Shown piece by piece: positions 14,311 to 54,836 of a stretch of DNA of 64,000 bases. The stretch spans positions 3,296,001 through 3,360,000 of the forward strand of contig CBDIID010000003.1 in NCBI GenBank assembly GCA_965279515.1. The letters are read 5' to 3'. The DNA comes from Turneriella sp. Its GTDB lineage: Bacteria > Spirochaetota > Leptospiria > Turneriellales > Turneriellaceae. Below the pieces are notes generated by a model that ran no database searches, was not told the origin of the DNA, and worked only from the letters and a program-made list of their open reading frames with translations. The position numbers were made by a program, and so were the translations under genes. How positions within the stretch are numbered: the first letter of the stretch is position 1; each line of letters starts with the position of its first letter.

Positions 14311-14390
14311 CGAATGCAAAATCGGATCGCAGCCGCAAAGTGAAAATCGAAAAGGGCCCGGAGATGATTGTCGCGCCTGCAAAAAATTTC

Positions 14391-16034
14391 ATGCGCGCCA
14401 TCTGTATTTGTGCGCTCGCCGCCGCGCTTTCATGCAAATCATGGGGGAAGTTCTGGGAGGTTGGCACCGTAACGATCAGTGCCTTGGGCGGGCGCAGTAC
14501 CGGGGAGTTGTGGAGCAATACACTGATTGGCAGCTCAACAAGCTCTGTAGCGCGCATTGAAATCTCCATTGCCGGCGGTGCCTGGGGCATAGCAACCGGC
14601 ACGACGTCATGGCGCTATGCGATTCCTTTTTCGGCGAATCTGAAAGTCGGCAAAAAATATGCTTTTAGTGCGCGTGCGGTAGGTAGTGACGGGTCCGTGA
14701 TCGCGACGCAATCGGGGGATTTGCTGCGTCGGGAAAATCACGATATCAACGGAGACGGCTATGCCGACTTCATCGCGGCAGCTCCGGCACGTAATACCAG
14801 CACTGGTTCGATCTATATTTATTATGGCGCTGCGGCGCCGCAATACGCGGCTTCGGGCGCCGGCGCACCAACAATCATCACTGGCGGCGGTACCCAGCGC
14901 AGCTTCGGCTCAGCCTTGGCCCTGGGTGACATCAATGGCGATGGTTACGCCGATCTGGCCGTTGGGGGCGAGCAGTATGCCTCGGGCGCATACAACGGTG
15001 CGGTGTGGATCTATTTCGGCGGCAGTAATGGCATTCCCAGCCAGGCGGCGCTGGTAACGGCGCAATATGTCGGCATCGCCGCAAACGATTATTATGGCGG
15101 CGCGGTTGCGGTGGGCGATCTCAACGGCGACGGTTACCAGGATGTTGTGGTTGGCGCGCGTGAGCGCGTCGGTTCAACGGGTGAAATTTATGCGTACCTG
15201 GGTTCATCCTCCGGCTTGTCATTAGCAACGGCAACCGTGAAAACCGGTACCGGATCTGAAAGGTTCGGTTCTTCGCTGGCGGTGGTCGATGTCAACAGCG
15301 ACGGCATGGCAGATGTCATTGTCGGCGCACCGACAGCCACCCCAACTAGTCTAGCCTATGTTTTTCACGGCATTGCTTCGGGTTTTAATACCACTGCGGC
15401 CGCCACGATCACCGGAGAGGCCGCTGACCGTTTCGGTGACGGCTTCGCCACCGGCGATTTTAACAATGATGGCTATGTGGATATAGCGGTTCAAGCGCGC
15501 GATCACAATGCGGGTCTCGCAACACAGGGGAAGGTATACTTTTTTCCGGGAAGCGCGGCAGGGTTCTCTAATTTCACAGCCAACAGCGCAACGCATCTGA
15601 ATTTTTCGGGTGAGTTAGCCGGATCAACCCTTGGGCGCAGCATACGCATTACCGATGCCAACGGTGATGGTTTTGCCGATTTGCTCTTTTCTTCTTATCT
15701 GCCGGCGTCGATTCCCGGAAAAATTTATTTTCTTCCCGGTAACGCCAGCGGCTTTAGTTCAGCGAATGCGGCAACGATTGCGCAACAAATCACCGGCATC
15801 ACCAATGGCGACGGTCTTGGTGTCTGCATGAGCGTGAAAGATATCAATGGCGACGGCTTTCCCGATCTCATCGCAGGTGCCTATAACCGAAACGCGGGTG
15901 CCGGTGGCGGGCAGGGCACGGCCAGTGTCATTTTAGGGAGTAGAGCCGGCTTTTCGAGTCCATCGTCTGCCGCGGCTGCTTTTACCCTGAATGGTGAAGC
16001 GGGGGGCGACAACTTCGGTCTTGTTGTCTATTAA
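14391..16034 (+). CDS. Lipoprotein with Ig-like domain and FG-GAP (integrin-alpha-like) beta-propeller
   Basis: Signal ending ALSC; seven DxNxDGxxD Ca-binding repeats with FG..GA motifs. Confidence 0.88.
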   Translation: MRAICICALAAALSCKSWGKFWEVGTVTISALGGRSTGELWSNTLIGSSTSSVARIEISIAGGAWGIATGTTSWRYAIPFSANLKVGKKYAFSARAVGSDGSVIATQSGDLLRRENHDINGDGYADFIAAAPARNTSTGSIYIYYGAAAPQYAASGAGAPTIITGGGTQRSFGSALALGDINGDGYADLAVGGEQYASGAYNGAVWIYFGGSNGIPSQAALVTAQYVGIAANDYYGGAVAVGDLNGDGYQDVVVGARERVGSTGEIYAYLGSSSGLSLATATVKTGTGSERFGSSLAVVDVNSDGMADVIVGAPTATPTSLAYVFHGIASGFNTTAAATITGEAADRFGDGFATGDFNNDGYVDIAVQARDHNAGLATQGKVYFFPGSAAGFSNFTANSATHLNFSGELAGSTLGRSIRITDANGDGFADLLFSSYLPASIPGKIYFLPGNASGFSSANAATIAQQITGITNGDGLGVCMSVKDINGDGFPDLIAGAYNRNAGAGGGQGTASVILGSRAGFSSPSSAAAAFTLNGEAGGDNFGLVVY

Positions 16035-16040
16035 GGATAA

Positions 16041-18368
16041 ATGCCTAAAGCAATCTTAATCACACAATGCCTGCAGAACGACTTTGTGCGCCTGCTCGAC
16101 AGATATGATCCGCTGCCGAATTTTCTGCATATCGGTTATGACGAAGCCAACCGGCTTCTGGGCGAGCGCGTCGAAGAGGGGCCGGTCGCGCAAATCATAC
16201 GCTGGGCTTACGACCAGAAATCCGACGACCTGGGAATCATACATATCCGCGACTGGCACGACGAACACGATACCGAGCAACAAGGGCATCTGAACCAGTT
16301 CGGAAAACACAGTCTTAGGGGAACAGACGGCGCTGATTTTGTTTTTAGCAAGCAGATCAAAGAAGGTCGCCACCATGCGATCGTCGACGCGTCGGGCCTC
16401 AATGATTTTTACCAGACGGATTTAGCGGAGCATCTTAGCGATTGCAATGCTGCCGCCCTCAAAGTCGGGTTGATCGGCGTCTGGACCGAGGCTAAGATTA
16501 CGTATCTCGCCTATGAACTCCTAACCCGGTATCCTAAAATCGAACTTTCGACCTGCAGTGCGCTCACGGCGAGCTCATCCCGCAGCCAGCACTTTATTGC
16601 CCTCGATCATCTCAAAAAAATTCTCGGTGTGAAGATCTTTGATTCCGTCGCCAGCTTCGCCGAACACCTCGGCGGCGAAGGGCATGGGGTCACCCCTTCG
16701 GCTTATGCTGCCGCTAAGATGCTCGACGATGCCAAATTCCATTTTAATATTCCGTATACGCTTAAAGAAGCAGACAATAAAATATTGCATTATCTTTTCC
16801 GCGACAGTAAATCCGCCGATTTCATCTGTCTTGACGGCGGCTTTAGCGGCAACGTGGTCTTAAAGGCCGAATCGCGCGACCAGTATGACCAGAAGCAGAC
16901 GCCGACAGTCGTCAAGATCGGCGAACGCGACCCGATTTCGCGCGAACGTGCGGCATTTGAACGCGTGCAGGAAGTACTCGGTAACAGCGCACCGGCAATC
17001 GTCGATTTTGCCGAATTCGGCACGCGCGGCGGCATCAAATACCGTTACGCAGCCATGACCGATGGCAAAGTGAAGACGTTCCAGAAGTATTTTGCCGAAA
17101 GCGACGATGTGGAACTGCTCAGAAAATTTTTAAGTATCGTTTTCACCCGCCAGCTCGGGAAATTCTACGAGGCCGCGGTTCAGGAGAATCTGAATCTGCT
17201 TGAGTATTACGATTTCCGTCCCAAATATGCCGATTCGGTGAAACGTAAGTGTGCTGAACTGGCGGACCTGCAAGCCGATGGCACTCTCAAAATCACAGAG
17301 GGCTTGCACGTCGAAGACGTCGCCGCTTTTTACGCGCACGACCTGCTCACTTTGCGCGAGACCGTCGCCGTACCGCGCTACGTTTCCTGGCTGCATGGCG
17401 ACCTCAACGGCGCCAATATCATGATCGACGAGGCACATAATGTCTGGCTGATCGATTTCTTTCACACACACCGCGGCCATGCGCTGAAAGACTTAATCAA
17501 ACTCGAAAACGATATCCTGTTTATTTTTACGAAAATTGATGATGCGCATGATCTGTTTTTGGCGAAACAGGCAACAGACTGGCTGTTCGATATCCATGAT
17601 CTCGCGGTACCTCTCGGTGAGATTCCTGTTACACTGGCCGCCGATGCCCGCTTTCGGAAATCCCTGCTTGTCATTCAGTACCTGCGCGGACTTTATAAGA
17701 ATATTATCGATCTCGACCGCGACCCCTACCAGTTTTTCATCGCCGCTGCGCGTTATGCCATGCACACGCTCTCCTTCGACGAGTGCAATCTCTGGCAACG
17801 CAAATGGGCGCTCTATGCGGGAGCGACTGCGCTGGGGCGCGTACGCGCATCGCTGGCACAATCGGCGCAACTCAGAATCGATTTTATGGATCTGCAGGGC
17901 CATGCGTCGCCCCAGGGACTCATCGGGCTGACAATCTTGCCGGGTCGCAAGGACCGTGGCCGCGACCTGGCGACCGATATCGAACAATTAAAAAAATCCG
18001 GCGTCGGCGCCGTGGTGACCCTTATCAGTAATGCCGAATTTGGCGACTACGGCGTACCCGATCTGCTCGACAAATACCGCAGCGCCGGTTTCGAAGTACT
18101 GCACACGCCGATTAAAGACCAGGGTGTACCCACCGCCGATCAGGCCGATGAGCTTCTCGGCTTCATCCAGAAGAATGCGGATGCAAACCGGCGCACGGTT
18201 CTCCATTGTGTCGGCGGTCTCGGCCGCACGGGGGTTGCTGCGGCGCTGTTTCTGAAACACTTCGCAGGTATCGATGGCGATGAGGCAATTAACCGTATAC
18301 GCGCCGTCCGTTCGCCCCGTGCCGTAGAAAATCTCGATCAGGAAAATTACGTGAGAAATTATGCCTAA
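16041..18368 (+). CDS. Tri-domain protein: isochorismatase-like + APH/kinase-fold phosphotransferase + CDKN3-like Cx5R phosphatase
   Basis: CLQNDF, DWH, HSLRGTDGA; GGFSG, VVKIG, HGDLNGAN, LIDF; HCVGGLGRTG. Confidence 0.85.
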   Translation: MPKAILITQCLQNDFVRLLDRYDPLPNFLHIGYDEANRLLGERVEEGPVAQIIRWAYDQKSDDLGIIHIRDWHDEHDTEQQGHLNQFGKHSLRGTDGADFVFSKQIKEGRHHAIVDASGLNDFYQTDLAEHLSDCNAAALKVGLIGVWTEAKITYLAYELLTRYPKIELSTCSALTASSSRSQHFIALDHLKKILGVKIFDSVASFAEHLGGEGHGVTPSAYAAAKMLDDAKFHFNIPYTLKEADNKILHYLFRDSKSADFICLDGGFSGNVVLKAESRDQYDQKQTPTVVKIGERDPISRERAAFERVQEVLGNSAPAIVDFAEFGTRGGIKYRYAAMTDGKVKTFQKYFAESDDVELLRKFLSIVFTRQLGKFYEAAVQENLNLLEYYDFRPKYADSVKRKCAELADLQADGTLKITEGLHVEDVAAFYAHDLLTLRETVAVPRYVSWLHGDLNGANIMIDEAHNVWLIDFFHTHRGHALKDLIKLENDILFIFTKIDDAHDLFLAKQATDWLFDIHDLAVPLGEIPVTLAADARFRKSLLVIQYLRGLYKNIIDLDRDPYQFFIAAARYAMHTLSFDECNLWQRKWALYAGATALGRVRASLAQSAQLRIDFMDLQGHASPQGLIGLTILPGRKDRGRDLATDIEQLKKSGVGAVVTLISNAEFGDYGVPDLLDKYRSAGFEVLHTPIKDQGVPTADQADELLGFIQKNADANRRTVLHCVGGLGRTGVAAALFLKHFAGIDGDEAINRIRAVRSPRAVENLDQENYVRNYA

Positions 18369-28974: not shown

Positions 28975-31590
28975 ATGTCGGTAAAGCGCGGTCATGCCCT
29001 GTTTCTTGGAGTTATGTGCCTGGCACTCGGTCGCTGCAATTCGCTGATCAGCGAAACCGAACGAATCCGCAAACTCTATGAACAGCAGCAAGCCGTCGTG
29101 CCTGTGGTAACGGCGACCGATCCCGCGGACAATAGTGTTGCGCCCTATAATCAAAGCTATATTGATATTACTTTCTCCAGCGAAATCGCTGCCTCGACAT
29201 TCACGCCGCAAACCACCTTCGGCGCCTGTACTGGTTCGGTGCAGATAAGTTATGACGGCTTTGTTAATTGTATCGGCGGTACGGTGGATGCCTCGCAGAA
29301 CCCGCGCCTGCGTTTTACGCCGGCCATTTTCCCGAAGGCCCTGGGGTTTCAGATTAGGGTTACAAATGCCGTCTTAAGCACAGCCGGAGTTCCCGTAACG
29401 CCTTACACCTCGCCCGTTGGGTTTAAGCTGGGCACTCCCTGCGGGACTTCCAATTGTTTCTTCAGCTACTCTACGCCGCTGATATACCCTGCGGGTGCAT
29501 ACTCGGGAATATTCCTGGTTCGGGGTGGCACGCATACGGGTAAGTACCTTGTCTATACATCTGGCATCACCACAACCACGCTTATTGATCCCGTTGCCAT
29601 CTCTTCACAGGCAGGCCCCGACATGGCCACCGGCGGTTGTGCGGCGCCGGGTAACAGCACGCATAATTTCCTGAACAATGCCGGTACTAAAGAAGTTATT
29701 GTCTTGGGAAACTCGACAACGGCGACCTGCCTCTTCGACCATGCACTCAACAATTTCGCCAACGGACCGACTTTCCTCGCAGCAACAGGGCTGGGGTCTT
29801 ATTCATTCAAACCGCAGAACCCGCTATCGGGCGAATATGGAAATGTGCTGATCACGACGGCGAATAACAGTGCCGGAGTTGTGCGTTTCGCAGCCGATGA
29901 TACCGGCAGCGGTTCCGTTTTTACACTGACTGGCGGCAACGCCAATCTCGGTGCGCATGCGATACGCTCAACCGCTGGCACTTATGCCGGAAAATGGATT
30001 CATTACAACAGTGGAGCTCAGACGACCCTGTTCACCGAAAATCCGCCCGGGATGAGCCTTGGGTATTCGCTCGGACTGGGCGTCAGTATTGGCGCGGCTT
30101 CGCTCGAGATCTTTTCCGGTACGCGCACCGGGCAAGTTATTACGGTCTTTGGCGGAAGTGCCAATACGATTTTTGCTTATGACATTGCCAATGATGCCAT
30201 AGTGCCGATGCAGCCCGCAGCGATGCCCGCGCTTGTCGGCGGGGGAGCCTTGCTGCTGCGGCAATCGGGCACTGCGACTTTCGATGCACCAGTTATGCTG
30301 CACGGGAATGGCTCGGCGACGACGGTGCACACAACCAGTGTGTATGATGCTGTGGCCGGAAATTTTACGTCGGGACCGTCGACAACCGGGGCGATCGCAG
30401 GCGGCTCGGCAAGTATCTTTGCCGGTTCGCCCAGTAACGGCGCGTTTCTGATCGTGAATGGCAATACGTTTCCGTCGACCTCGGTTTATTTTCCCTCTAC
30501 TAAATTGTTCAGTGGCACCCGTATGCCTCTCAGCGTGCCAAATCCAGGAGCACATGCGGTTCGTATATCCGGCGGATTTAACGACGGGCGTACACTGATC
30601 GTCGGTGCCGGCGGTACACGGCACTCCGCCGTTTACGATCCGCTGAGGCACACGATGGATGTGGGGCCTGACACACTCACGGCGATTTCTGCGTCGGGCT
30701 TCAGCATTCCACTCAGCCGCGGCGCACATGCGGGGAAAATCTTTACCTTCCATGGCGGCGGTTCCACGACCTTCAGCGTATATGATCCTGGTTCCACAGC
30801 ATATGTAAGTTCAGGGTCGCTTACCTTGCCTGCGATCACTGGCACATTTGCTGTGATGAATGCCGGTGCGAACGGCTTTCCTGTTGCGAATGACGATCGC
30901 CTGCTCGTGATGCACGGTGGGGGCAGCAATACCACACGCTACATCAACCAGATGACCGGTGTTGTCGGGGTGGGGCCGGGGTTGGGTGCCTGCGCCCTGA
31001 GCATCGGTACCAACATCCGGTATACCAAACCCACGGGCGGCGGATTGATGCAGTTTGTGATGTGCACCGCTAACTCCTTCATCGTATTCGATCATGCCCC
31101 GGCCATGCTGAGCTTCGCGGCCCCGCAAATTATGACTTCAACCGGAGCCGGTCGCCAATTGTACGTAATTCCTTCGGGGGCAGAGGCGGGCAACATCATG
31201 GTTATCCATGGTGGTGGCACCGGCACCAGCAGTGTCATCAATGCGGACACGCTCGTTGAAGGCGTTGGCCCCTCTATCGGTGGAGTTGGTGCGTGTGGAA
31301 ACTCCGTCATGGTTGATGCGGGGGCACAACTCATGCCGATACCCTTTGGACCCAATGCGGGTAAGGCTTTGCTCCTGGTGGGAGGCGCGGCAGGTTCGCC
31401 CGTCTCCTGTTTGTACGACCCGGCAACGAACAGTTTTAGTCCAGGACCCGTTGTCAGTTCAAATGGCTCGCCGGGGTTTGCAATCAGCAATGGTTCTGTT
31501 GCCTTCAGAACTTTTGGCGGTGCTTATCCGACTGCATTCATCGTTATCAGTGGTGCGAACAAAAATGTCTGGAATACCTACGTGCCCTAG
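28975..31590 (+). CDS. Large lipoprotein: SbsA/Big_5-like Ig domain plus kelch-like beta-propeller repeats
   Basis: Signal ending LGRC; PVVTATDPADN..ITFS; repeated G..GK.L..HGG.....YDP....F..GP units. Confidence 0.75.
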   Translation: MSVKRGHALFLGVMCLALGRCNSLISETERIRKLYEQQQAVVPVVTATDPADNSVAPYNQSYIDITFSSEIAASTFTPQTTFGACTGSVQISYDGFVNCIGGTVDASQNPRLRFTPAIFPKALGFQIRVTNAVLSTAGVPVTPYTSPVGFKLGTPCGTSNCFFSYSTPLIYPAGAYSGIFLVRGGTHTGKYLVYTSGITTTTLIDPVAISSQAGPDMATGGCAAPGNSTHNFLNNAGTKEVIVLGNSTTATCLFDHALNNFANGPTFLAATGLGSYSFKPQNPLSGEYGNVLITTANNSAGVVRFAADDTGSGSVFTLTGGNANLGAHAIRSTAGTYAGKWIHYNSGAQTTLFTENPPGMSLGYSLGLGVSIGAASLEIFSGTRTGQVITVFGGSANTIFAYDIANDAIVPMQPAAMPALVGGGALLLRQSGTATFDAPVMLHGNGSATTVHTTSVYDAVAGNFTSGPSTTGAIAGGSASIFAGSPSNGAFLIVNGNTFPSTSVYFPSTKLFSGTRMPLSVPNPGAHAVRISGGFNDGRTLIVGAGGTRHSAVYDPLRHTMDVGPDTLTAISASGFSIPLSRGAHAGKIFTFHGGGSTTFSVYDPGSTAYVSSGSLTLPAITGTFAVMNAGANGFPVANDDRLLVMHGGGSNTTRYINQMTGVVGVGPGLGACALSIGTNIRYTKPTGGGLMQFVMCTANSFIVFDHAPAMLSFAAPQIMTSTGAGRQLYVIPSGAEAGNIMVIHGGGTGTSSVINADTLVEGVGPSIGGVGACGNSVMVDAGAQLMPIPFGPNAGKALLLVGGAAGSPVSCLYDPATNSFSPGPVVSSNGSPGFAISNGSVAFRTFGGAYPTAFIVISGANKNVWNTYVP

Positions 31591-48987: not shown

Positions 48988-49980
48988 CTACTGAAAAAGC
49001 ATGCCCTTGCCGGCCTGGTAATGCCGCAGCACCTGCGCCGGTGTCAGTACACTGCCGAGGTAAATAGCCATTTCATCGACGACGGCATTGAGCGCTGCGC
49101 CTGGCGACCAGACATACTCGCCGATGCGAAAGCTCGTCGCCGAGGCATTGCCATAGGGAACGCCGCTGATCGAGGTGATTTCGACGCCATCCTTATACAT
49201 CACCCGGCGCTGCGTCGCGGCTTCGTATGTCATGGCATAGTGGTGGTAGTTTACGGTATCGGTTTCTGACGCCGTGGGCGAGTCGAGATCCTGAGCGCCC
49301 CCGCCATAAAGACTGAAGCGGATTACGTTCGTGTTTGTCAGCGCTAAATGCATGCCATTGCCTGGGGTATTCGTGCCGTGGCTGAACACCGTTTGGAAAG
49401 TGCCCGCGGCGTTTCTTTTTACCCAAACATCAAAAGAAACATTCTGGCCAGACAGGTTAAAGGAAGACGTTGTAGTAAAATATCCACCATTCAGCGATAT
49501 CGCCGTGTTACTGTCGCCATTGATCGCACCGGCTTGCGAGTAGGTGATCGTTGCTCCGCCGGCAATGGCTGTGTCAGCCACCGCGCTGCTCACGATATTC
49601 CCCGAAGCTTCTCCCATACGGCAATAGTAGGTGATGCCCGTTTCGGCAAGGGTCATGGCCGCATACGTCGTCACTTTCACCGTGTTCTCCTCAGTCTTAC
49701 CTGCCGCGTCCGTTGCTCGCAGCGTTGTTGTACCGGTAAAGGCTCCGGGGGCATAAACTCCGGTGCTGGTATTGAGCGAGCCGCCCCCTGAAATCAACTG
49801 GTAGGTGAGCGGGGCTGTCAGGTTGGGAAAAAGCGGGGTCAATGCAATCGACTGATTGCTGAGCATCGAATAACCCGTGGGGGTCGTTACTCCAGAGGAG
49901 GAAATCCCTGAGGACCAGAAGTTTCCCCAACTATTGCATCCCCCGAAAAAAATCAAGATAGGTCCGATAAGTAAGCGCAC
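48988..49980 (-). CDS. Lipoprotein with Ig-like and LamG/concanavalin-like domain
   Basis: Signal ending FGGC; YCRMGE, FDVWVK, YHHYAMTY, YKDG, VDEMAIY..LT..QV..HY. Confidence 0.85.
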   Translation of the reverse strand: MRLLIGPILIFFGGCNSWGNFWSSGISSSGVTTPTGYSMLSNQSIALTPLFPNLTAPLTYQLISGGGSLNTSTGVYAPGAFTGTTTLRATDAAGKTEENTVKVTTYAAMTLAETGITYYCRMGEASGNIVSSAVADTAIAGGATITYSQAGAINGDSNTAISLNGGYFTTTSSFNLSGQNVSFDVWVKRNAAGTFQTVFSHGTNTPGNGMHLALTNTNVIRFSLYGGGAQDLDSPTASETDTVNYHHYAMTYEAATQRRVMYKDGVEITSISGVPYGNASATSFRIGEYVWSPGAALNAVVDEMAIYLGSVLTPAQVLRHYQAGKGMLFQ

Positions 49981-52367: not shown

Positions 52368-53641
52368 TGAATCCTTGGCACTATGTCTATCCGCGTTTTA
52401 CGGAGCGCGAACTCGAACACCGTTTTATCCTGGGTAACAACGCCAAGGCCGCGCAGCAGGCGCGCTGGGGGTTTCTGTTCGGCACCTTTGGGTATGCAAT
52501 ATTGGGCGGCATCTCGTTCTTTCTGCTGCCCGAGTTCTTCGAGAAGTCAAAATATTTCCTCTACGGCTTTATCGTGCCGACGCATTTCACGGCGGCTATT
52601 TCTGTAGGCTTCTTCGGCAGGTTCTTTTACCTGCAATGGATTCTGGTTTTTGCCAATGTTTTCAGCAATGCCTGTGCAATCATGCTCATGTACCTCTCGC
52701 CCGACGCCTTCTACCTGAAGTACGGCTATGGTCTGGTCATTTGTATTATTATCTATACCTTCGCCATGCTACGGCTGAGGACCTTTTTCGCGATTGCTGC
52801 ATCGGGGCTTGTACTGGCACAATACCTCGCCTTCCTTATATTCATCCGGCCGATGCCGATGATCGATATTGTCTATGCGCTGGCGATAATCCTGTTCGTA
52901 AATACAGCGGGCCTGGTTTCGGTATTCTTTTTTGAACTCAATGCCCGCACCGAGTTCATGCAGAATCGCACGATCGAAGAGCAGACGAGGCAGCTCGGCG
53001 AAGAGAAAAAGCGCTCCGAAGCCTTGCTGCGCAATATCTTACCTGAAACAGTAGCCAACCGCCTGCTTTCGGGCGAGCGCACCATTGCCGATTATTTCGA
53101 GAGTGTTTCGGTGCTGTTTGCAGATATCGAAGGTTTCACCAGTCTCGCCCGCCGGCTCAAGGCGCAGGAGCTCGTGCAGTTTCTGAACAGCATCTTCAGC
53201 AGTTTCGATTCGCTGGCCGAAGTTCTGGGCCTCGAGAAAATCAAGACCATCGGCGACGCTTATATGGTCGGTGCGGGCTTACCGGCCGCCAGCGAAGACC
53301 ATGCGCAGCGCTGCTTTGCCATGGCGCAGGGCATGCTGCGTATTCTCGAAGAAGAGAACAAAAACCTGTCAGAACCACTGCGCCTGAGAATCGGCATTGC
53401 CTCGGGGCCTGTGGTCGCTGGGGTAATCGGGCAGAATAAGTTCATCTATGATCTTTGGGGCGACACGGTCAATACCGCGAGCCGTATGGAATCTTCGGGC
53501 GTGCCGGGGGAGATCCACATCACGGAGACGACCATGACCGCGCTGGGTAACACTGCACAATTTGTCGACCGCGGCGAAATTGAGATCAAGGGCATCGGCA
53601 AGATGCGCACGTATTTGGCGCGGAGCGCAGAGGTTGCTTAG
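52367..53641 (+). CDS. Membrane-bound class III adenylate cyclase
   Basis: About 6 TM helices; LLRNILP, FADIEGFT, KIKTIGDAYM, YDLWGDTVNTASRME (Lys/Asp pair implies ATP); GTG overlaps the feoB stop. Confidence 0.9.
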   Translation: MNPWHYVYPRFTERELEHRFILGNNAKAAQQARWGFLFGTFGYAILGGISFFLLPEFFEKSKYFLYGFIVPTHFTAAISVGFFGRFFYLQWILVFANVFSNACAIMLMYLSPDAFYLKYGYGLVICIIIYTFAMLRLRTFFAIAASGLVLAQYLAFLIFIRPMPMIDIVYALAIILFVNTAGLVSVFFFELNARTEFMQNRTIEEQTRQLGEEKKRSEALLRNILPETVANRLLSGERTIADYFESVSVLFADIEGFTSLARRLKAQELVQFLNSIFSSFDSLAEVLGLEKIKTIGDAYMVGAGLPAASEDHAQRCFAMAQGMLRILEEENKNLSEPLRLRIGIASGPVVAGVIGQNKFIYDLWGDTVNTASRMESSGVPGEIHITETTMTALGNTAQFVDRGEIEIKGIGKMRTYLARSAEVA

Positions 53642-54836
53642 GGTTATACCGCTCTTCGTTTGTTTCGCTTACCTGGGGTGTGGGCAGAGTTGGGGCAAAT
53701 TCTGGGAAGTGGATGTTTGTGAGGTAAACGCCTCTTATACGGAAGCGATTCAGTCGAACCGCGCAGACCAGTTCTTGTACCATCTCAGGGCGCAGCGCGA
53801 TAAAGGCGAGACAGCGATTGCCTCTGCGAATAATACAACCCTCTCAGGTCTTTCCGGCGGATTAAAATGGGCGGGCGGTGTGCTTGCTCCGAATGGAAAA
53901 ATATACACAATTCCAAGGCAAAGCGACGTCGTGGCGATCATTGATCCCGCAACGGATAGTATCAACCTGACAAAAATCACGGGGCTGACGACGACTGCAA
54001 ATAAATGGGTCGGTGGTGTACTGGCGCCCAACGGGAAAATTTACGGAATTCCTTCGGGGAGCTCCAGCGTGCTCATCATTGATCCGGCAACCGACACAGC
54101 CGATACCACCACTATCACGGGGTTAACGGGCACGACTAAATGGTTTGGCGGTGTGTTGGCCCGTAACGGAAAAATCTACGGGATTCCCCGCGATAGTAAT
54201 TTTGTCCTGGTGATTGATCCCGCGACAAATACCGCCGATGCCACAACGATCAGCGTACCGGCCGGTACATCGAAATGGTTCGGCGGCGTTCTGGCTCCGA
54301 ATGGTAAAATCTATGCAATTCCCGCCGACGCGACCAGTGTACTGATTATCGATCCCGAAAAGAACTCTGCCGATACGACAACGATTGCTGGCCTCTCGTC
54401 GGGTACCGGTAAATGGTCGGGTGGTGTTCTGGCCCCCAACGGCAAGATTTACGCGATTCCGGGATCGGGTGACAATGTGCTCATCATCAACCCCGAGAAT
54501 AACTCGGTCGATACGACGACGATTACGGGCCTGGGGGCGACGACCGTCAAATGGCTGGGGGGCGTTTTGGCCCCCAACGGCAAAATCTACGGTATGCCCC
54601 ACAATATCGCCATTGGAAATCTGCTGATTATTGATCCGGCGATAAATACGGCGGATATAACCTCTGTGGGCGGTTTGACAGGCGGCACAGACAAGTGGTT
54701 CGGTGGAGTACTCGCGGGGAATAAGAAGATCTATGGCATGCCCTTCGACAGTACCGTGGGTTTGATTCTGGATACTAAGTCGAAGGGCGCCTTCTGCGAC
54801 GCGGTGCTCCAGTCGGCATACCTGAATAAATATTAA
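53634..54836 (+). CDS. Lipoprotein with seven near-identical ~46-aa repeats (7-bladed beta-propeller)
   Basis: TTG start; signal ending YLGC; 7x KWxGGVLAxNxKIYxxP. Confidence 0.85.
   Translation: MLRVIPLFVCFAYLGCGQSWGKFWEVDVCEVNASYTEAIQSNRADQFLYHLRAQRDKGETAIASANNTTLSGLSGGLKWAGGVLAPNGKIYTIPRQSDVVAIIDPATDSINLTKITGLTTTANKWVGGVLAPNGKIYGIPSGSSSVLIIDPATDTADTTTITGLTGTTKWFGGVLARNGKIYGIPRDSNFVLVIDPATNTADATTISVPAGTSKWFGGVLAPNGKIYAIPADATSVLIIDPEKNSADTTTIAGLSSGTGKWSGGVLAPNGKIYAIPGSGDNVLIINPENNSVDTTTITGLGATTVKWLGGVLAPNGKIYGMPHNIAIGNLLIIDPAINTADITSVGGLTGGTDKWFGGVLAGNKKIYGMPFDSTVGLILDTKSKGAFCDAVLQSAYLNKY

Follow-up and report, generated by a model that had tools for sequence, protein, structure and literature searches.

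An aromatic tag directly behind the predicted lipobox cysteine of unrelated extracellular-type lipoproteins in Turneriella

Why should three lipoproteins with unrelated mature domains begin, directly behind the lipobox cysteine, with almost the same aromatic peptide? The question is raised by a 64,000-nucleotide stretch of Turneriella sp. DNA (hereafter the window), in which an earlier note had read CKSWGKFWEV from position 14433 (+ strand), CNSWGNFWSS from 49938 (- strand) and CGQSWGKFWEV from 53679 (+ strand), and had proposed a lineage-specific sorting signal or Trp-rich membrane tether that marks adhesin- or lectin-like lipoproteins for surface display, possibly with a dedicated recogniser. 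All three peptides are present at these positions, each preceded by a basic and hydrophobic signal peptide, and their passengers (FG-GAP, Laminin_G_3 and repeat propeller) form three separate BLAST groups with no mutual similarity. The remaining lipoproteins of the window lack the motif, as had been reported, and the window holds just three of the genome's 24 copies. The relevant features are as follows.

14391..14432, + strand: signal peptide of the FG-GAP lipoprotein (ATG at 14391, with possible upstream starts at 14364 and 14340; heuristic lipoprotein call)
14433..14462, + strand: lipobox Cys (TGC at 14433) and aromatic tag CKSWGKFWEV of the FG-GAP lipoprotein, placed by AlphaFold2 outside the folded domain
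14463..16034, + strand: FG-GAP passenger, an all-beta N-terminal domain followed by an FG-GAP repeat propeller (PF01839, E 7e-48)
28975..31590, + strand: comparator, an extracellular-type lipoprotein with a different tether, homologous to four motif-bearing proteins (E 8e-17)
48988..49908, - strand: LamG passenger, a Ser/Thr linker, a small beta domain and Laminin_G_3 (ConA-like; PF13385, E 1e-17)
49909..49938, - strand: lipobox Cys and aromatic tag CNSWGNFWSS of the LamG lipoprotein, read from the sequence
49939..49980, - strand: signal peptide of the LamG lipoprotein (GTG at 49980; signal peptide and motif are present in the full-length relatives P0263 and P0264)
53634..53678, + strand: signal peptide of the repeat-propeller lipoprotein (TTG at 53634; 53562 possible)
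53679..53711, + strand: lipobox Cys and aromatic tag CGQSWGKFWEV (three-residue spacer) of the repeat-propeller lipoprotein, read from the sequence
53712..54836, + strand: repeat beta-propeller passenger with GGVLAPNGKIY repeats (PF16819, E 6e-14; TIGR02276, E 4e-13)

In the AlphaFold2 model of the FG-GAP protein (mean pLDDT 93.6) residues 1-10 lie outside the first domain with a pLDDT of 55, the full-length model leaving the tag as a low-confidence coil, and the tag thus stands apart from the fold of its passenger in this model; the N-terminal all-beta domain itself we infer to be Ig-like. In the database, the gene called for the LamG protein (292 residues, P0260; window 48988-49980, - strand) starts too far downstream and loses both signal peptide and tag, and three further relatives have the same short length. 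The gene caller used here also truncated many tagged members, so the motif is under-annotated. The gene after the FG-GAP lipoprotein (16041-18368, + strand) encodes 775 residues, with a C-terminal H-C-x-G-G-x-G-R-T phosphatase signature behind two other domains.

Across the genome, a six-frame scan returned 11 strict matches, and a pattern widened to C-x(2,3)-[WF]-[GNS]-x-F-W near the N terminus brought the count to 24 genes, all with C-x(2-4)-[WFY]-G-[KRNDH]-F-W starting from the lipobox cysteine. Every one of these genes encodes a signal peptide and 316-925 residues beyond the cysteine, and all 24 products pass a heuristic Sec/SPII filter (basic n-region, hydrophobic h-region, cleavage-site Cys), lipidation of the tag cysteine being predicted for each. 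The chance expectation at the 488 candidate (heuristic) lipobox positions is 0.003, a contrast with the 24 observed that is overstated by the pattern having been widened on seeing the data and that still leaves a margin of four orders; the core five residues occur five times in the 1.49 million residues of the other called genes, and looser pattern searches found no half-decayed copies on lipoproteins of this genome. The tagged genes are dispersed, and their passengers form 11 unrelated single-linkage groups, or 19 when the first 100 post-tag residues alone are compared. Of the 21 tagged members that lie elsewhere in the genome, 15 have Pfam labels (lactonase-type propellers, FG-GAP, Lcl_C, SBBP, DUF6923, FGE-sulfatase, TIG, Big and fn3; Lcl_C, or DUF1566, in two members) and six are without a family. 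A genome-wide scan of the kind suggested by the earlier note thus returns what the note had named as support for its proposal, many copies on diverse adhesin- and lectin-like domains.

The tag is conserved as a peptide and not as DNA. Its codons are scrambled among copies, Ser being encoded by TCN as well as AGY codons, and the identical-codon frequency at shared residues between unrelated passenger groups (0.445) matches that of a simulated null (0.448 +/- 0.027). BLASTN of the 5' regions matches essentially the motif codons alone, which, with synonymous identity at the null, leads us to reject recent DNA-level 5' shuffling. Given synonymous codons at chance identity and unrelated signal peptides, selection acts on the peptide. 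The 83 tagged proteins, drawn from 14 genomes, have a between-group identity of 0.13 over the last 12 signal-peptide residues, 0.68 over the seven-residue tag and 0.08 over the next 12, and 54 close pairs have identities of 0.22 in the signal peptide and 0.84 in the tag. Gly is found in 77/83 of these proteins, Ser in 62/83 and Glu after the tag in 40/83, in a set chosen by motif such that F and W are fixed by the selection and Gly partly so, with Ser and the post-tag Glu free to vary. The first aromatic residue lies at +4, +5 and +6 in 70, 9 and 4 of the 83, respectively, for a spacer of 2 to 4 residues. A whole-protein search, which is not motif-selected, finds S-W-G-[KR]-F-W in 12/12 relatives at least 49% identical to the FG-GAP protein, whose orthologue in Turneriella sp. 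is 79% identical; both full-length LamG relatives viewed (P0263 and P0264) retain the tag, and one propeller relative (P0140) has Leu for Phe in it.

Nor does the tag correspond to a described family. No named family matches two or more of the 24 tag N-termini (best E 0.017 in Pfam and 0.11 in NCBIfam); the best match in the PDB has an E of 0.37, and the best in the Atlas (0.80) is at chance level. No description of the tag was found in the main texts of the open literature, where the literal-motif matches were, by their listings, free of bacterial lipoprotein papers; no such motif appears in the excerpts of PMC7857515, PMC11784454, PMC13721041, PMC11358297, PMC5406399 and PMC7941034, nor in those of PMC13692018 and PMC13056109. 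The earlier remark that no named family is known therefore holds for Pfam, NCBIfam, the PDB and the literature, and two of the three outcomes that the earlier note had named as refuting its proposal, a few copies sharing DNA-level identity or a family already described, are contradicted by the 24 copies, codon identity at the null and the lack of any family match. The peptide is a real, unnamed and portable post-lipobox tag, with the function proposed below.

Its range is that of the genus. A profile search places the tag in 14/14 Turneriella genomes (this genome and all 13 others), and the DNA pattern has matches in 13/13 of the other genus genomes, where the reversed control has none; 59 of 64 candidate rows read from genus loci are genuine tagged lipoproteins, covering all 13 genomes, and five were dropped as non-matching. 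None of the loci returned and read from the class's 176 further genomes contains a genuine copy, and the lineage-specificity that had been proposed stands on this basis. A candidate presence in Leptospiraceae was rejected, the recurrent match in one genus of family f9 and the other out-of-genus matches read being either in the wrong frame or interrupted by a stop inside 60 codons (27 translated matches); the weak profile matches outside the genus (17 rows) are likewise ordinary lipoboxes, one of them (L164) with a faint Trp likeness. In a GTDB-wide scan, 13 of 112 stretches among the matches listed have a signal peptide and an open frame, 11 of these in records titled as spirochaete or Leptospiraceae MAGs and two in records without a title. 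All 21 proteins that a profile picked out of 1.84 billion representatives have the motif behind a signal peptide.

To ask what the tag marks, we ranked the 488 heuristic lipoproteins by the difference between their Ser/Thr/Gly/Asn and Lys/Glu/Arg contents, which serves as a proxy for an extracellular, beta-rich character. The tag is carried by 24/94 large lipoproteins of extracellular-type composition and by 0/117 others (large, below the lowest tagged value), with p 2e-7 by rank among the 211 large lipoproteins, for a threshold set post hoc and paralogues that are not independent. It is exclusive to the extracellular-type class, yet it cannot be a general surface signal or the sole route, since 70/94 members of that class lack it and homologous passengers use other tethers. 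The proposal that it marks adhesin- or lectin-like lipoproteins thus survives in the sense that the tag rides on diverse such domains and on this class alone, and fails in the sense of a general surface signal; the surface location of the tagged proteins is itself suggested by their domains and composition.

The untagged relatives are instructive in this respect. This genome has 19 motif-negative homologues of tagged passengers, nearly all of them lipoproteins: tagged L123 shares 55.5% identity with an untagged gene over 706 residues, with homology beginning just past the tether, and tagged L125 and L153 have untagged best matches at 49% and 54%, the 54%-identical homologue having a polar Ser/Asp tether. 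L123 with G000:C3:3016500 and L153 with G000:C3:3438251 are natural pairs of this sort. Judging from these alignments, tethers are swapped as blocks between homologous passengers, which makes the tag portable. When 47 FG-GAP passengers are placed on a quick tree after removal of their tethers (seven near-duplicate rows left out), the distribution of the tag needs four changes, at least two of them forced by well-supported branches. Homologous passengers in Leptospira and other spirochaetes often carry other aromatic or amphipathic post-Cys segments, in mutually related rows, hinting at a wider tether code; examples are C-D-F-L-L-N-T-P-F and C-S-x-[FY]-G-x-W-D (P0149-P0187, P0153, P0179, P0212, P0059, P0086, P0093, P0100, P0132). 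A second conserved tether, x-N-C-[LI]-N-x4-C-F, occurs in this genome on eight lipoproteins of 349-2110 residues, with D-x ahead in seven (G000:C3 645960+, 795769+, 1269939+, 2108497+, 2114681+, 2120891+, 3514632+, 4605619-). It likely carries a disulfide, its bearers are one homologous family, unlike those of the aromatic tag, and the pattern also occurs in 8/13 other genus genomes and one sister genus.

Physically, the tag is membrane-seeking by calculation. Its hydrophobic moment peaks at 100 degrees across the 83 tagged proteins, and its best five-residue interfacial partition energy has a median of -3.8 kcal/mol, the medians of the two remaining lipoprotein classes being +0.3 and +0.7; the mean net charge over +2 to +9 is +0.33 in the 24 tagged proteins. 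The 35-residue N terminus folded alone gave an uninformative model that supports a helix neither way. A general hydrophobic tether was not found among the extracellular-type lipoproteins of this genome, the untagged ones being no more membrane-seeking than controls.

The genome encodes machinery with which such a tag could work. The genes of its type II secretion system (T2SS) lie in at least four places (G000:C3 963500-968414, 1041285-1043011, 4587579-4591780, 4807413-4807848) and include a secretin gene next to gspE/F-like genes (gspDEF), four genes of pseudopilin type and a gspN cluster. GspN (TIGR04411, 67.6 bits against a cut-off of 50), the known candidate reader of sorting motifs behind the lipobox, is encoded by the last gene of a four-gene cluster whose other members are read, from their sequences, as gspK, L and M. 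There are two LolA-family genes, five Omp85-family matches and a single lspA. Two lnt genes score above the TIGR00546 cut-off, and a third candidate is weaker (lnt positions G000:C3 936352+, 1133145- and 2007364-2007999-). Slam (PF04575) has no match in this genome or in any control genome, and LptD has none to PF04453 or PF19838 in a genome 99.99% complete, which probably reflects a divergent copy rather than absence. In the two small contigs identical ORF starts recur, twice in one (G000:C1 13443, 36924) and three times in the other (G000:C2 5092, 11718, 18344), as they would in concatenated circular elements or through an assembly artefact. Excerpts of reviews give Slam, T2SS, Bam and a disputed LptD as surface routes in the Leptospirales group, none of them with a sequence signal for it. 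The dedicated recogniser suggested by the earlier note is possible and so far unsupported: no transporter family or neighbour gene recurs within three genes either side of the 24 tagged loci, and GspN, present in 13/13 of the other genus genomes, does not track the motif because it is also found in 31/34 genomes of the order, which mostly lack the motif. A complex prediction of the GspN periplasmic part with the tag scored 0.00, a value uninformative either way.

In light of these results, we tentatively propose that the tag is an aromatic tether which inserts into the membrane, tilts sorting in favour of T2SS export, surface retention or both, and serves as a second anchor, a reading to which we give a probability of about 45%. 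Sec export, lipidation and LspA cleavage would come first and leave the tag starting 3-5 residues from the acylated cysteine, where it would form one and a half turns of amphipathic helix and its three aromatic side chains (W/F, F and W) would enter the membrane interface beside the lipid chains. The extra membrane affinity would most likely block default Lol extraction, so that the protein stays in the inner membrane for the GspN-containing T2SS, and after export the tag would double as a second anchor holding the adhesin-like passenger on the outer surface. The spacer variation of 2 to 4 residues suits a membrane anchor, and the calculated interfacial energy, the hydrophobic moment, the aromatic or amphipathic segments of relatives in other spirochaetes, the T2SS and gspN genes and the InvL/PulA and Lcl precedents described below also speak for this reading. 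Weighing against the tether are the polar Ser/Asp tether on the 54%-identical homologue, the polar character of known T2SS motifs, the low-confidence coil in the model and the heuristic nature of the lipoprotein list; likewise, strong membrane affinity is evidently unneeded for the extracellular-type class, given that 70/94 are untagged and have tethers no more membrane-seeking than controls. The tag is also more exact than a generic amphipathic helix requires, with its frequent Gly and Ser and no decayed variants, which points to a shaped partner.

That exactness favours the main rival to the membrane tether, a sequence-specific export signal in which GspN, another T2SS part, a LolA paralogue or a genus-specific chaperone or translocon binds the lipid together with S-W-G-K-F-W, as the lipoprotein export signal (LES) is thought to work; we regard it as a serious if somewhat unlikely contender. 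In its favour F-W is near-invariant and Gly and Ser are strongly kept over unrelated passengers in 14 genomes, the boundary is sharp and free of intermediates in this genome, the motif is gained or lost as a block on the passenger tree, and the LolA- and Omp85-family genes supply candidate readers, but no neighbour recurs at the 24 loci, GspN is far wider than the motif, the spacing to the lipid varies, P0140 has Leu for Phe, and homologous passengers manage without the tag. The stronger form, in which a dedicated factor (a specialised GspN pocket or a Turneriella chaperone or translocon) reads the aromatic signal and the tag suffices to surface-display a foreign passenger, we consider unlikely. 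That homologues carry polar tethers on the same passenger is what would be expected if export were independent of the tag, and this, with the tag being found on only about a quarter of extracellular-type lipoproteins, speaks for a role after export: tagged and untagged proteins would share one route to the surface, and the tag would bind an outer-membrane partner (a beta-barrel or LPS) or other tags and so cluster these adhesins, or sort the protein into or out of outer-membrane vesicles. Vesicle sorting by a post-lipobox motif is reported in Bacteroides (PMC10319031, PMC6222051), but no partner gene is linked to the tagged loci, and we judge such docking quite improbable.

A maturation signal, directing N-acylation by one of the two Lnt paralogues, efficient LspA cleavage after an atypical -1 residue, aromatic modification or proteolytic shedding, is a long shot. 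Besides the two lnt genes over the cut-off, the -1 position gives it some support, with Ala in 1/24 tagged proteins as against 25/87 motif-negative extracellular-type and 75/256 other lipoproteins, and with R, H or E in 7/24; however, there is a single lspA, His at -1 is common in untagged proteins too (11/87 of the motif-negative extracellular-type set), no recurring modifying enzyme adjoins the tagged genes, and the restriction to the extracellular-type class would be left unexplained. Prepilin-type and RiPP-type modification were set aside, no enzyme recurring near the 24 tagged genes; DAG-RiPP Cys-modifying enzymes adjoin their precursors, according to the excerpt of PMC13056109. Finally, the tag could be the neutral remnant of an ancient N-terminal cassette that domain shuffling has spread, without a present role, as the observed cassette-like swaps might suggest, but this is scarcely credible when the peptide has been kept despite saturated synonymous sites and unrelated flanks, with signal peptides of the 54 close pairs far more diverged than their tags.

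An exact aromatic tag common to at least 11 unrelated passenger groups in a harmless, free-living genus offers a clean experimental handle, and it would let annotators predict the class and mend gene starts that callers often truncate, within the compass of one little-studied genus and about a quarter of its candidate surface lipoproteins. Were the dedicated-factor reading true, it would be the first strictly conserved lipoprotein export signal in a spirochaete, and the other tethers of this genome and of Leptospira homologues would be further words of a tether code.

How does the tag compare with known systems? To our knowledge, the known post-lipobox signals are polar or acidic. In E. coli Lol avoidance (the +2 rule), the residues after the cysteine decide sorting, with Asp at +2; Asp occupies +2 in 0/24 tagged proteins, and the information of the tag lies instead at +4 to +10. 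The LES of Bacteroidota, as given in the excerpt of PMC5080379, is an acidic, phylum-wide K-(D/E)2 or Q-A-(D/E)2 that was shown to be sufficient. Like the tag, which sits beside the cysteine of predicted lipoproteins, it is lineage-specific and position-dependent, and it occurs on glycan-binding surface lipoproteins; unlike it, the tag is aromatic, slightly basic and confined to one genus, and the LES pattern is found in 0/24 tagged proteins.

The excerpt of PMC12802150 describes a post-lipobox motif needed for GspN-dependent surface export, a low-complexity P2'-P8' segment rich in Gly/Ser or Asn/Asp in Acinetobacter InvL and Klebsiella PulA, with inner-membrane association proposed as its mode. 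The tag resembles it, as described there, in being short, directly post-Cys, borne by unrelated surface lipoproteins (candidate ones in Turneriella) and one of more than one motif class per genome, in a host with T2SS and GspN, and differs in being aromatic and sequence-exact, its own T2SS dependence being hypothetical. At least four G/S/N/D residues in +2 to +8 occur in 2/24 tagged, 21/87 motif-negative extracellular-type and 18/256 other lipoproteins; the motif-negative extracellular-type proteins may thus lean to the polar T2SS type, a tendency confounded by the class definition. An N-terminal amphipathic helix keeps the T2SS substrate Lcl on the surface (excerpt of PMC11162425), a membrane-binding segment of the sort proposed for the tag, and the Lcl_C domain is also among the tagged passengers; that segment is about 30 residues long, is confined to a single protein family and lacks a lipid anchor in the excerpted account, in contrast to a tag of 5-7 residues that is post-lipobox and cross-family. 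Closest in lineage are the tether peptides of Borrelia, which according to the excerpt of PMC2987989 govern surface localisation without primary sequence conservation: both are spirochaete N-terminal tethers, and whereas those of Borrelia are not conserved in sequence, the Turneriella tag is strictly so.
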